Shown: piece by piece, positions 5,340-63,844 of the stretch
Layout of the letters: each line of letters begins with the position of its first letter
Numbering within the stretch: the first letter of the stretch is position 1
Assembly: GCA_964016885.1 (NCBI GenBank)
Contig: OZ024760.1
Location: 33,666,001-33,730,000 of the forward strand
DNA length: 64,000 nucleotides
From: Eledone cirrhosa
Lineage: Eukaryota
Reading direction: 5' to 3'
Translations under genes and position numbers: made by a program
The notes under the pieces: generated by a model
What the model saw: the letters and a program-made list of their open reading frames with translations, nothing else
Database searches by the model: none
What the model was told of the DNA's origin: nothing

Positions 5340-5954
5340 CTGAATAAATAAATAAACAAAGAATGGAAATAAAATAAATAAAAACCAAGTCAAATAGGAA
5401 AGAAGATACCGCTGCAGCCAAACCCTACACACACACACACACACACACACACACACACACACACACACACACACATATATATATATATATATATATATAT
5501 ATATATATATATATATATATACACATATATATACGTATATATACATATATATATATGAATGTATATATATATACACACACACGCACCACACCCACATATA
5601 TATATATAGATGTATGTATATATATATATATACAGGAAAAGAGTCAGGACCCCGACGGCTGAGCTCCGGCCGTTTCGACAGCTAGATCCGAACGCTAGAT
5701 CAGTTCGGATCTAGTTGTCGAAAATGCCGGAGCTCAGCCGTCGGGGTCCTGACTTTTTTCCTATTACCCACTCTACTACCCTAAGTATCGAGTACTCTGG
5801 TGCGTTATGGTCCACCTGGTTCCTTGCCACACTTCCTTTGTGTGTATATATATATATATATATATATATATATATATATATATATATATATATATATATA
5901 TATATATGAATGTATATATAGTGTATTTTGCAATACACTGTATGCTTAATTAAA

Positions 5955-6161
5955 AGCATTTTGAAGACCATACGCTATTGTTTTAAAATAGTGACAATGT
6001 CACTTATTTAAATTTTCAGCAAACAGGGGAGATAAACTGACAGAGCTCTGAGCTTTGATAAGCTCAGAGCTCTGTCAGTTTATCTCCCCTGTTTGCTGAA
6101 AATTTAAATAAGTGACATTGTCACTATTTTAAAACAATAGCGTATGGTCTTCAAAATGCTT
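5955..6161. repeat. Near-perfect hairpin, ~100-bp arms with ~6-nt spacer
   Basis: 5955-6054 is the reverse complement of 6061-6161. Confidence 0.9.
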
Positions 6162-6255
6162 GTATTCTCAGTCGCTTCACGCCATGAAACCGGGATAAGC
6201 ACCGGCCAAATGATCCTTCTGGCTTAAGACAGACCTTTTATATATATATATATAT

Positions 6256-7665
6256 ATATACTATAAAGCTGACGGCTAGGTAACAAACTTTCCGCCAAAC
6301 GGCTGGACCAAACAGCACCAAATTTGCACCATAGATGTAACTTTTTCCAAGTAAAAACGTAAGGGTATTTTTGTCTACTGAATTTTGTTAAAAGGTTAAA
6401 GACATTATTTAAATATTCACTTCTTTATAATGTCAAATGTCAACACTTCCGGTTATACGTCATTCCTCACTTTTTCTTATGAGGTCACACAACATTCCCC
6501 TCTTTTTCTTAGTCTGTCTTTTTAGATAGATACATAGCTATAACGTAGTGCCCTTATAATATGTCTCTGTATGTCTGACTGTCTGCATTAGATAACGTTT
6601 TTCGAAATATTTACTTCTGCGTTCACAGACGGATTCTTTTAGTTAAGGGTGAAAGCAGCGATTCTTTGCTTAAACTTTAATGTTATTTTAATATATATAT
6701 ATTCGTGTACAGATATTTTTGCATACACAAAAACAAAAAGCTATTTATTTCACGAAAGCACAGACGGCTTATCGTCATTGTTACTGTTCGAGGTTAGAGG
6801 ACCACAGTCTTTCCAAGATCTGAGAACCATCAATGGCCATCAATATTCCAGTTACCGTATGGCTTGCCAGAAGCGTGGTATGTTACACGATGACAGCCAT
6901 TGGCACCTCACCCTGCAAGAGGCAACAACTGCTAAAGTCCCTTCTCAGCTGCGAAAACCTTTGGCTATTATGCTGCACAACTGCGATCTCGCCGACCGTT
7001 TCGCACTGTGGGACAACCACCGCAAAATTTTAGCTGAGGACATCCTCCACCGCACACGCAGACACAATCCAAACGTAACATACGATGTCGATTTCAATGA
7101 GGCGCTCATTTGTGTCGAAAACAGTGTCCAGGAGATTGGTGGTAGGCCTCTAAGTCACTACAGCTTACCTGTTCCTAACAGGAGTGTCCAGAGGTCAACG
7201 TCTACAAAGCTTCTCCGCGAGACGAGCTACGAAATCAGTGATTCTCCCATGGTCAATTGTATGTAGGATGCTCTAGGGTGAGCTCGCCAAACAATCTCTT
7301 CATCTTTGCTCCGGAGGGCCGAACAAGAAATATTGTATACTCTGAGGCTCTAGCAATGTAACTTAAATATTTTCTGTTACTTGGAATTTCCATTAAGGTT
7401 GTACAAATTATTGTTTGTTAAAAAATGTGTCCTCTGTTCAGCCTTTATTGTTGTAACTATCAATTTTCTTTAACGTACTAGCTGCTGAACTGGGGAATCC
7501 TAAAAAATTATTCCAACCCAACATCAGAGCACGTTAACCTCCTCCCCTCTCTGACTAGAGAGGGCGTGCGGTATCTTTGCACTAGAGTGGAAGGGGAGCG
7601 GGGGATTTCTGAAAAAATAAAATGCCGGTATACCTATCCGAGCACCAGCCGGACGGGCCATCTAG
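6256..7665 (+). mobile_element. Internally deleted Helitron
   Basis: RepHel linker peptide (LLLFEVRGPQSFQDLRTING...) fused to the Pif1 C-terminal motif FSHGQLYVGCSRV...TRNIVYSEAL at 7242-7361; GC-rich subterminal stem then CTAG at 7662-7665 followed by T; flanked by (TA)n. Confidence 0.85.
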
Positions 7666-60255: not shown

Positions 60256-60360
60256 TGGCAAATGACTTGATCTGAGACCGTGTGTTGTATATGTTTGGCA
60301 AATGACTTGATCTGAGACCGTGTGCTGTGTATGTATGCCAAGTGACTTGATCTGAGACTG
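60256..60360. repeat. Three copies of a ~40-bp unit (ggcaaatgacttgatctgagaccgtgtg...)
   Basis: Directly visible. Confidence 0.85.
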
Positions 60361-63300
60361 TTTATTAAAACTAAAACAATCTCTGCGTGTAAGAATAGTT
60401 CTAGACATATATTTTTCTCTTTAACAGAAACGAAACAATGCAAACATCTCTTTATTATTTTTTTCAGGCCCTAGCAGCTGTTCTTCACCAATTTATGATT
60501 GCACAGAAAAGTTCCCTGATTGTCTTTCAAAAGGCCCAACCGTTGTATGTATGGACAAAGGGCAATTTCATTGCGTTCTACCAGTTAAGCGCGGTGGTCC
60601 CTTATGTAAGTAATATTATTTTAGCTTTGCTGGCAATTTGTCGTTTCAACCAGGCCTGATACTTTCATAAATGTTGGAGGTGGGATTCAATATTTTGAAT
60701 ATACAAAAATCTTTACTGAGGCCCCACTCCAACTGTAGGTTTGTTAGGCGGCTGTTAACTCATTATTGAGTTTAACCACCCCTGTTTTTTTTATCTACAT
60801 ACCCTTCACATATCAGGATGGAACCCTAGAGTGACGTTGCTGGTTTTATAGCCAACAACCCTACCATGAAACCCTAAGTAATGGTGTAAAGGGTAACCAT
60901 ACACATCCCTCTATCCCTCTCTCTCTCTCTCTCTCCCTCTCTCTCTCTCTCTCACTCTCTCACACTCTCTCTCTCTCTTTCTCTCTCTCTCTCAACACAA
61001 GAGCAAGAATGACGGAGTCATTCTACTGACATTGCTTTAAGAGGCTATTTGCATAATTGCAAACGAATCGAATAATATTTTTAATATTCGTAAAAGGGCA
61101 GCGGATTTGTAGTATCGGTAGGGCGTCGGACACCATGCTTTGCAGCATAGAGTTACGGCCCTTTATGATCTGAGTTCAAATCCCGCCGAGGTTAACTTTG
61201 CCTTTCACCCTTACGGGGTCGATAAAATAAAGTACCAGTCACGTACTGGGGTCGATTTATTCAACTTTCCCCTCCCAAAAAATGTCTGGCCTTGTGCCTA
61301 TATAAGAAACCATTATTAATATTCGAAAAACTCAGATTACATTTATTGTATTCAGCCATGTAGAGCGATAAACTATTTGTTTGTAATATATATATATAAG
61401 AGAGAGAGAGAGGAGAGAGAGAGAGAGAGAGAGAGAGAAGGTGAAGTTGGAAATAACACGGAAAATATATTTTGGGGTCTGTTTCTCTTTTTTGAGTGCT
61501 CCAGTCCACTTCTGAGCAAGGAAGATGGGAAAAATACTTACTCCAACACTTAATTTTAAATCTTTAATTTTTAGTTTTTAATTCCTATTAATTCTTTTTA
61601 AATGTAAAACTCAACATTTGATAAGGTGAATTTTAATAATACATCGAAACCGGTAATACTTTACATACTTTATATACATTATAAAACTCTTTTTTAAAAG
61701 AATTGTCCCTCTCATTCTTTCAATATTGTCATCTTTTCAAAAATGTCACTTTGACGAATCAAAGAAAAACAGAAAAACAGACCCTAAAATATATTTTCCG
61801 TGTTATTTCCAACTTCACCTTTTCTCTATATCCCCTGTTTTGTATAGAACCTTATTTCTCTGTTCTAATATAGCGTCCAAAACGTTAAGACCCTCTTCCT
61901 GCTATATCAAGCGTTAACCTAATATATACCTTCCATATACTGTACCGATTGTGTTGTTATTTCTGTTTACCTTTTACACACACACACACACATACACACA
62001 TACACACACACACACACACACACACACACACACACACACACACACACGTACACATATATATATAGTGTCTGATTGGTTAGAGAACTGGATTCACAATCGT
62101 GAGGTTGTTAGTTCGATTCCTGGACCAGGCGATGCGTTATGTCCTTGAGCAAGACACTTTATTTCACGTTGCTCCTTCTAACTGGAGTTGCGACCGATAG
62201 ATAGTATTAGCAATTGGAAAGACCAACGGAAACATTGTTTCCTCGGTCCACTCCCTCAATATGTTTTATATACTACCCTCTACTCTCTACTTCACCCTCA
62301 TCCGCGTACACACCACACTTATCCCTTTCTTTCTCCTTTTCTTTCTCGTTGTATTCTTAATCTTATTTTATAATTTACTTTAATTTTTTTTTTCCTTTGT
62401 TCCGACCATCTGACCAACACAATCCCTCTGTTCCTCTTTCGTATCCTTTCATCCCCGCGTCCGATATCGCTTCTACTCATCCCTGCAATCTCACCCAGCA
62501 CCCTCACATCACCACATAAACGCTAAATTGCCTACAAAACACCACACCTTCACAACTTCCACCAAGCAATGCTTCCCCTTCACCACCATCTCTCTTTCAC
62601 CATCGCTTCATTATAATTCTCCCCCTCACCTATCACACATAACCAAAACATTCCTTCTAGCAAAACCACCTATCAAAACGAACTAAAACTGACCGCCATG
62701 TATGAATGTAAATCGTTATATACTGTTTCAAAGCCTTAAGAGGTTCATTCTGTCATTACCACAACAGCCGACGAGATTTTGATTCCAGAGTCTCTACTCA
62801 ATAAACGCAATGAAGACCTAACAAATCGTCTTTTTTATTCTCTCTCTCTCTCTCTCTCTCTCTCTCTCTCTCTCTCTCTCTCTCTCTCTCTCTATATATA
62901 TATATATATATATATATATATATATATATGTGTGTATATATATATGTCTTATGGTAGCTAGGATCCGTCCATAGGCGGTATGCCGGTTGTGTGTGCGTGT
63001 ATATATATATATATATATATATATATACTATAAAGTATGTCCATAGAATCATTTGATAATATATATACACCATTTCCTCTCACAATAAGCATAATCAACC
63101 ACACAAAAAACCAATTGAACCAGGCTATAAGATTAAAATGCATCTATGAAGAAATAGTAGATAAATAAACGACAGCAATCTATTCGCGATCAACCGCTAT
63201 TTGAATATTTACCCAACATTTCAATAGCATGTGTCAACCATACACAATTAGGTATAACATTAAAGTTAGAAAAAAAAATGCATATACACATACCAGGATT

Positions 63301-63844
63301 ACGTTTCTACCGCTTATATATATAAAGAATGCAACCATTACTGTTGGAAGCTCCCAGAGCTTCCAACAGTAATGGTTGCATTCTTTAAGGGTATGTCAAT
63401 ATTTATTTATAAAACTGCTCTATATTATATTTTATCTGATGAAAGCACACCATAATTTAACTTGGTGTCCTTGAAATATGTATAATGAAATAAATATGGT
63501 TTTATAAATATAGTTTCCATTTGTTAATATCGTATATATATATATATATATATATATATATATATATATATATATATATATATATATATGTATACAAATA
63601 AAGATTCAGCGAGAGTCGCATTTTCGGCGGGCAGGAAAAAAAAAGCGAAGCGAAACGCAAATATATATATATAAAGAATTAGTATATCTAGTAACATATA
63701 TATACACACAGATGCATACTTATGCTAGCAAATATATAGGTTTTGTCTTAGTAACTTTGTAGTTCAATGCATGGGGTTGCAGAACAATAATATGAGAGAC
63801 GTAAAATAAGAAAATTATAAAATTAACTTACTTACTAAAATTTC

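Follow-up and report, generated by a model that had tools for sequence, protein, structure and literature searches.

A 64-kb window of the 3.0-Gb Eledone cirrhosa assembly (GCA_964016885.1, contig OZ024760.1, positions 33666001-33730000; "the window" denotes this whole stretch, and coordinates count from its first letter) contains a series of palindromes made of two inverted arms, which from their motifs appear to be ends of Penelope-like elements (PLEs) of the Hydra and Neptune clades. The arms point tail-out and lie in (TA)n tracts, a pattern that is real and genome-wide. Among 103 insertions examined in four families, every two-ended same-family insertion (71/71) joins one long to one short 3′ end. 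The reading we favour, and regard as probable, is twin priming: the two nicked strands of a (TA)n tract would each prime at its own fixed internal site on a single RNA, and the resulting cDNAs would then be joined, a mechanism inferred from the end products.

Tail-out palindromes in (TA)n tracts

Inverted pairs were detected by self-BLAST, and hammerheads by a relaxed type I hammerhead descriptor (score at least 14), adopted after a first, strict descriptor had returned 6 motifs. The relaxed descriptor found 20 motifs in the window versus 0 in each of 2 local shuffles. An Rfam scan returned no hammerhead family among the best 150 of 473 matches, all of them below gathering score; these were microRNA-type and similar matches falling on microsatellites and hairpins. 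Fold z-scores of the hammerheads were not significant.

All 12 inverted pairs listed in a preliminary description of the window were recovered, with arm identities of 82-99% (Table 1). That description had called their families unrelated, which holds for 11 families rather than 12, since 21662/22483 and 42340/42458 are 93% identical and thus form one family. The polarity it had proposed, left arm minus-sense and right arm plus-sense, was found in 12/12 pairs, 11 being oriented by their type I hammerhead (20683/21258 by eye, from a degenerate core with a score of 4) and one (31685/37866) by its open reading frame (ORF). The described association with (TA)n is equally clear: one arm end lies within 10 bp of a (TA)4 in 12/12 pairs, compared with 3.8% of 4,511 random non-microsatellite window positions, and both arm ends lie within 150 bp in 12/12, compared with 31% per random position. 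In 11/12 pairs a single arm touches (TA)n and its partner bears an unpaired extension, the next (TA)4 lying 23-134 bp away. The twelfth pair (50269) has the extension behind its upstream pseudo-long terminal repeat (pLTR) as well. The units had also been described as ORF-less, but two of the 12 pairs contain ORFs.

The same geometry was found in a genome sample of 39 stretches of 10 kb taken at round coordinates (390 kb). Here, 34 hammerheads were detected, compared with none in shuffled sequence. Of these, 27 belong to tail-out arms, for 6 no partner was detected (although one of them has a tail-only partner) and 1 was scored tail-in, being a solo copy beside an unrelated palindrome. All 16 sampled pairs were tail-out, so that the bias extends beyond the window, contrary to random polarity, and 14/16 had an end within 15 bp of a (TA)4 against a background of 3.0%. 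The (TA)n repeats make up 9.6% of the window, whose GC content is 33%, and 4.7% of the wider sample.

In total, 1.03 Mb of sequence was compared, with loci (numbered with the prefix L) partly picked by family and duplicate removal imperfect. Neighbouring hammerheads of the same family were tail-out in 78 cases and tail-in in 2, both of the latter with (TA)n between them, whereas those of different families were tail-in in 38 cases, all with (TA)n between them, and tail-out in 9. New insertions therefore seem to hit (TA)n beside older ones and build chains. One palindrome (L040) is inserted into a (TA)n tract inside a family B unit, and the same tract is empty in the paralogue L031, so the tract pre-existed at least once. 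A few ends lack (TA)n (L143, L072), and a paralogue empty-site scan of 51 end pairs gave spurious matches only. The earlier proposal that (TA)n is a common target of many PLE families is thus supported.

The proposed retro-origin of the palindromes was upheld as well, as families B, C and D run on into Penelope-like ORFs with YxDD and DKG/DKT motifs. ORFs are tied to these three families and to the element at 31685; for family E, Hydra-type ORF pieces lie nearby in 4/30 loci. The predicted type I hammerhead lies inside the pLTR, a mark of PLEs. The element at 50269-55900 is probably Neptune-type and has the textbook layout of inverted truncated copy, partial pLTR, ORF and pLTR. Its ORF combines reverse transcriptase (RT) with a C-terminal endonuclease (Pfam GIY-YIG at 54184-55365, E 2e-6) and carries a CNDNRCGTC linker (CX4CX2C), CIKCPNC with two downstream His (CCHH) and DKG; the Neptune label rests on these motifs, and Nematis may be an alternative. 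The ORF at 35551-37866 had no Pfam match and was assigned to the Hydra clade by its motifs (DKT, CxCX5C, CxxC, CxH, a truncated RWK region and no CCHH). Family B is likewise Hydra-type (RWR, DKT, CNCRNKSNC), with a 735-aa open frame in a 4.2-kb unit (L042) and a microsatellite-rich 3′ untranslated region (UTR) of 1.9 kb. Among 33 near-full-length proteins (32 relatives plus the query), DK[TS] is present in 30 and CxCX5C in 17; the Hydra assignments are based on motifs. A partial-tandem pLTR with inverted copy and tail is found at 50269-55900, L031 and L042. Locus L031 (G000:C4:45932935-45935909) is a 3.0-kb derivative of family B that has kept its N-terminus and GIY-YIG domain without the RT region, arranged as a partial tandem plus an inverted arm.

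Head-to-head arms, an optional tail and the (TA)n bias are already published, and the geometry as such is therefore not new. The consulted excerpts of PMC3846280 describe inverted pLTRs with an optional tail on one of them, junction palindromes and head-to-head copies as the most frequent arrangement, while those of PMC8557442 describe PLE structures, the (TA)n bias and the Hydra clade. The element at 50269-55900 matches the published inverted-pLTR structure exactly (PMC3846280; PMC8557442 Fig. 2), sharing the inverted 5′-truncated copy, partial tandem pLTR, one-end tail, junction palindromes and pLTR hammerhead. However, the tails in those papers are optional or often at one end and 30-40 bp long, compared with 60-134 bp and strict alternation here, and in our material ORF-less palindromes predominate. 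The Hydra-type families agree with the clade as excerpted from PMC8557442 in RW[KR], DKT, the CxCX5C linker, CxxC and CxH, the lack of CCHH, hammerheads and (TA)n insertion, but the clade is described there as smaller than 3 kb with few families, whereas family B is 4.2 kb long, abundant and accompanied by its RT-deleted derivative.

One long end and one short end

Each of the four families has two fixed 3′ ends, 60-97 nt apart. In family B they lie at 0 and +97 (two copies being trimmed to +81 and +86), in family C at 0 and about +65, in family D 64 nt apart and in family E about 63 nt apart, with two E copies extending further. One long and one short end were paired in 25/25 two-ended insertions of family B (34 examined), 7/7 of family C (9), 17/17 of family D (30) and 22/22 of family E (30); D and E were queried with the long arm, so that only the partner was tested there, and it was short in 39/39. 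Either arm of a pair can be the longer one, and each end matches the TA repeat over 2-6 nt. Tandem copies reveal that the tail is the 5′ UTR ahead of the ATG, with the sequence continuing into the ORF; the long site lies at +97 with the ATG at +141 in family B, and at about +65 with the ATG at +88 in family C.

The ribozyme cut site is intact within the arms, so the template was uncleaved RNA, as it is in vitro in the excerpted part of PMC11167929. The preliminary description had placed priming on RNA 3′ ends, a view not borne out by two different fixed sites inside the transcript and an uncut ribozyme. The hammerhead cut was considered as the priming end and rejected, except for the left arm at 10539: by eye, this minus arm (10539-10948) is one unit of about 410 nt that begins just past the cut site and finishes at it, and it is the sole arm ending there (relatives: L099, L168). 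Non-LTR retrozymes (10.64898/2026.07.22.740005, in excerpt) likewise lack ORFs, carry a type I hammerhead and are related to pLTRs, and only the 10539 family looks monomer-like in that sense; retrozymes are defined by direct tandem repeats, whereas the palindromes are inverted pairs.

The arms of a pair extend to different degrees in the 5′ direction. In family B the short-end arm reaches further by more than 20 nt in 13/25 pairs and the long-end arm in 3/25, the two being equal within 20 nt in 9/25. Four inverted arms consist entirely or nearly of tail (L003, +48 to +97; L021, +46; L043, +14; L004, +1). In three family D pairs, although they were retrieved with the long arm, the short-end arm is the more extensive by 84-177 nt.

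The long/short rule is absent from the preliminary description, and the alternation and the non-nested arms appear to be new in the literature searched. We found neither strict alternation nor twin priming of PLEs stated there; Arkhipova 2006, Evgen'ev and Arkhipova 2005 and Pyatkov 2004 may hold part of it.

Proposed priming from both strands and its alternatives

Our hypothesis is that the GIY-YIG domain introduces a nick into each strand of a (TA)n tract. Of the two 3′ ends, one would start cDNA synthesis from the short site; the other would do so in the 5′ UTR after the pLTR, 60-97 nt further downstream. To our knowledge, PLEs have no RNase H, and the RNA would therefore survive for a second priming; with the RNA persisting, the downstream primer would displace the upstream cDNA and recopy the pLTR, or stall and leave a tail-only arm. 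The two cDNA ends would then be joined via short self-complementary matches or filler, each copying the other and so completing both strands. A transcript beginning inside the pLTR would give only short ORF-less double-ribozyme palindromes, and a read-through tandem transcript would give ORF-bearing ones. If one RNA is primed at two sites, alternation is forced, tail-only arms follow when the rear polymerase stalls, and a longer short-end arm is favoured. Of the models considered, the one suggested in the preliminary description, with both ends of the break acting as primers, fits the end products best, given independent arms and junctions with microhomology or filler. Taken jointly with a version that uses two RNAs, twin or dual priming can be held with good confidence. 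There is slightly more to be said for than against a stronger, programmed form, in which the two start sites serve one strand each, the cDNAs template each other, and the predominant product in this genome would be ORF-less double-hammerhead hairpins, of the order of 100,000, made from short transcripts that start in the pLTR.

A different origin for the second arm would be self-priming, where a strand either folds back on itself at a palindrome or switches to an antisense template. Such self-priming is proposed in the discussion of PMC3846280, and a tail by endonuclease-mediated resolution is proposed in PMC8557442, which calls the inverted-repeat mechanism undefined; PMC3846280 likewise leaves it open. 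Junctions do gather at self-complementary words, and sub-variants are common to both arms, as fold-back would have it. However, a fold-back copy cannot produce non-nested or tail-only arms without later deletion, because its template lacks that sequence: there is no overlap between the tail-only arms and the main arm, and in 13 family B and three family D pairs it is the short-end arm that extends further. Fold-back also leaves the long/short alternation without explanation. We consider it unlikely, and equally so the variant in which the tail arises by endonuclease resolution or by microhomology landing in (TA)n.

Sub-variants bear on the number of RNAs. In 17/18 young family B pairs the arms agree in sub-variant, although both sub-variants occur at about the same frequency; the agreement points to a single RNA or a single donor. 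Dual priming with two RNAs, one per protein subunit and each subunit tied to one start site, would need no strand displacement for complete overlap of the arms and would fit the arm differences in family C; it has been postulated for L1 in the consulted part of PMC2837659. It would also fit pairs of mixed family (L044, L020, L146, L177). These pairs mostly violate the long/short rule, however, and the partner in L020 differs by 4-6% from its nearest relatives, so that they look like deletions between neighbours. The mixed pairs, including 43211-43685 and 63023-63533 in the window, are likely such deletions between neighbouring palindromes, and we rejected them as proof of two RNAs. With the sub-variants matching as they do, the two-RNA version is improbable, a shade more so than fold-back.

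The centre junctions vary among loci and consist of short overlaps or filler. Overlaps of at least 3 nt occur in 4/11 exactly resolved junctions versus 7% in the null, and 3 more share an 8-nt palindrome by eye. Self-complementary words recur at the junctions, namely an 8-nt palindrome in 4 family B loci and TTTTAAAA in family E. Three A-variant B loci (L027, L044, L048) have an identical centre, and four older family C pairs carry one identical arm-specific base. Both would be expected if palindromes spread as units, either as DNA transposons resembling miniature inverted-repeat transposable elements (MITEs) in TA, a Tc1/mariner target, or as retro-copies of a palindromic master. Against this stand the unequal ends, sizes from about 0.2 to 6 kb, mostly different junctions, arms that carry hammerheads and continue into RT/GIY-YIG ORFs, and the finding that long and short arms of family B form no separate sequence groups. 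The equal terminal repeats and fixed length of MITEs are likewise replaced by unequal ends and variable centres and lengths; the insertions lie inside (TA)n, so any target duplication is unreadable. Spread as units is therefore very unlikely.

Inner arm ends are clustered. In family B, 21 lie between -176 and -188 compared with 10 in the following 100 nt, although the query demanded a reach to -176 and this 5′-end sample is not free of query bias (assembly searches with the family B tail, with family A and with the RTE end, in which common words are skipped, gave no match); several fall exactly at the A of TCACT, the stop point of both arms of the family B pair at 42584-43053. In family C the arms end close to -195, 31 nt past TATAAAA, and this also holds for two copies (window 43465, L087) obtained independently of the family C query. 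That transcription starts at these clusters, after TATAAAA in family C and at TCACT in family B, has about even odds; alternatively, local self-complementary words set the ends, which fits family E better. A cap-derived G at arm starts was seen in 2 unambiguous cases only and is not claimed.

Fold-back reads could in principle create palindromes during assembly, and the centre junction lacks confirmation in independent reads. Yet the arms differ by 0-18%, additional family sequence is found in one of them, and the ends coincide to within a few bases across dozens of loci. Moreover, short-read contigs from two runs, which carry different organism codes, have loose (TA)n at the long end, and those from a single run have it at the short end. 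The chance of an assembly artefact is negligible.

Several observations weigh against twin priming on one RNA. The whole mechanism is deduced from end products, no intermediate having been seen. Shared sub-variants fit fold-back or arm-to-arm conversion too, and 5/7 family C pairs differ between their arms at one base, which one RNA read twice does not account for. Deletions inside palindromes could extend the apparent reach of either arm. Filler was scored at 12/23 junctions, 3 of these being mis-scored owing to a sub-variant. Two-ended products are common and not universal: 32/103 insertions are solo, unresolved or internally inverted (13/30 in D), among them 8 family E and 9 family B insertions that are unresolved and inversions with an internal end at L059, L163, L167, L170 and L172. 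Just 9/16 randomly sampled pairs follow the strict asymmetry rule, and in 3/16 the repeat reaches (TA)n on either side: L087b, which is tailed by eye, and the ambiguous L077b and L099. No empty (TA)n allele was found: among the rows listed for four contig sets compared at L017 there was no joint across the insertion, the contigs being broken in repeats. Finally, PMC11167929 reports, from bulk data, that initiation involves no homology with the DNA being cut and that the start site does not differ between strands.

In that study, the Poseidon protein PAc cuts and extends both strands in vitro and starts at two adjacent internal sites bounding the tail. On the proposed model the palindromes would resemble this system in cutting and extension of both strands, two start sites and an uncleaved RNA template, but the Poseidon sites are located inside the coding frame and show no homology to their DNA target, whereas those described here precede the ATG and match TA repeats. 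The excerpted text draws no link between its two sites and inverted arms, its only use of "inverted" being for a blocking dT. The long/short rule connects two in vitro start sites with two genomic arms. L1 twin priming and the postulated dual priming (PMC2837659, in excerpt) would be similar in using primers from two nicks, in their tail-out product and in joining by microhomology or end joining, but the second L1 site is variable and the pieces barely overlap, whereas in the palindromes neither site varies and the two arms usually copy the same terminus.

If true, twin priming explains second-strand synthesis without a separate primer. The 16 pairs per 390 kb extrapolate to roughly 10^5 in 3.0 Gb, a rough figure that misses degenerate copies. 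Annotation tools could misclassify such palindromes as MITEs. Intronic palindromes would fold into long pre-mRNA hairpins on either strand and, speculatively, could be substrates for A-to-I editing or small RNAs.

Feature inventory of the window

Table 1. Palindromes and Penelope-like elements in the window, with predicted hammerheads; clade names are putative.
Position	Feature	Strand	Hammerheads	Arms and layout
5635-5844	Palindrome, abundant family		none detectable	short arm left, tailed arm right
10539-11051	Retrozyme-like pair		10996	minus arm 10539-10948; plus arm 10950-11045
13616-14501	Palindrome		14092 minus	tail 13616-13722 on left minus arm; right arm ends at (TA)n
20631-21615	Palindrome		near 21423 plus (degenerate)	left-arm tail; right arm ends at (TA)n
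21656-22830	Family A palindrome		21725 minus, 22677 plus	short end left at (TA)n, tailed end right
23013-23432	Older palindrome, 82% arms		23300 plus, long stem II	tail left
24259-24504	Family D (Hydra clade) ORF-less palindrome		24329 minus, 24373 plus	short left, long right
31685-40311	Hydra-clade element	minus		ORF 35551-37866, 5′-truncated; short end at (TA)n; long microsatellite-rich 3′ UTR; inverted plus arm 37866-40177, tail to 40311
41896-42153	Family E ORF-less palindrome		41977 minus, 42005 plus	short left, long right
42249-42556	Family A palindrome		42407 minus, 42487 plus	tailed end left, short end right
42584-43053	Family B (Hydra clade) ORF-less palindrome		42776 minus, 42956 plus	97-nt tail left, short right
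43211-43685	Mixed tail-out pair, two families		43314 minus, 43532 plus	
43974-45407	Pair, 1.1-kb spacer		45223 plus	short end left, tail right
50269-55900	Neptune-clade element, family C	plus	50474 minus, 55749 plus	inverted 5′-truncated copy and tail 50269-51609; partial upstream pLTR; ORF 51787-55368 in three frames (two frameshifts; RT, GIY-YIG); downstream pLTR with short end
63023-63533	Mixed pair		63436 plus	13723-family minus arm beside older family B arm; 31-bp hairpin

The pair 5635/5699, with which the preliminary description begins, has no hammerhead detected by the descriptor. Its family gave 57 BLAST matches in the 1.03 Mb, with long and short ends in (TA)n, and might be Naiad-type or a decayed end; further window copies lie at 1622-1677, 20148-20280 and 46683-46745. 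Beyond the listed pairs, hammerheads are located at 49387-49765 (49513 plus, with a 38-bp inverted arm) and at 63851-63921 (63921 minus, at the window edge). The family A hammerhead (21725, 22677, 42407, 42487, 50166; L068, L103) is a predicted ribozyme with a fixed CAGAAGA core, one substitution that is present in all scored copies. Locus L068 contains short direct repeats of the family A end with (TA)n between the repeats. A recurring end motif marks further short inverted pairs at (TA)n (13351-13460, 20631-20723, 45517-45644, 56100-56480).

A sushi domain at 912-1373 on the minus strand (Pfam) is exon-like, and further exon-like host-gene pieces, CUB-like and C-type-lectin-like by eye, lie on the same strand at 4300-4495, 17600-17800 and 19200-19350. 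Together these suggest that at least the left part of the window is intronic.

Among other retroelements, a long interspersed element (LINE) at 47293-48771, presumably of the RTE family, has an RVT_1 match and a classic 5′ inversion with both outer ends at (TA)n, and serves as a contrast case. The 3′ ends of such RTE-like LINEs (40903-41377, 41695-41870, 47293-48771; L041, L071) almost always adjoin (TA)n, as do many 5′ ends, and three ordinary inversions of the twin-priming type were found at (TA)n. The 3′ part of a LINE lies at 11566-12777 on the minus strand, with a zf-RVT domain (Pfam E 3e-7). Repeats resembling short interspersed elements, identified by eye, are found at 15066-16150, 18391-18547, 26983-27760, 61096-61300 and 62065-62249; some form inverted clusters round (TAA)n or (TA)n and are not hammerhead pairs. 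A 207-aa open stretch at 6643-7266 on the plus strand had no Pfam match and resembles a Helitron Rep/helicase fragment. Inverted repeats without a hammerhead, mostly also without (TA)n, at 5951-6164, 18718-19013 and 61441-61818 could be true MITEs. A minisatellite at 30534-30969 comprises about 21 copies of a 21-bp unit and is open in several frames.

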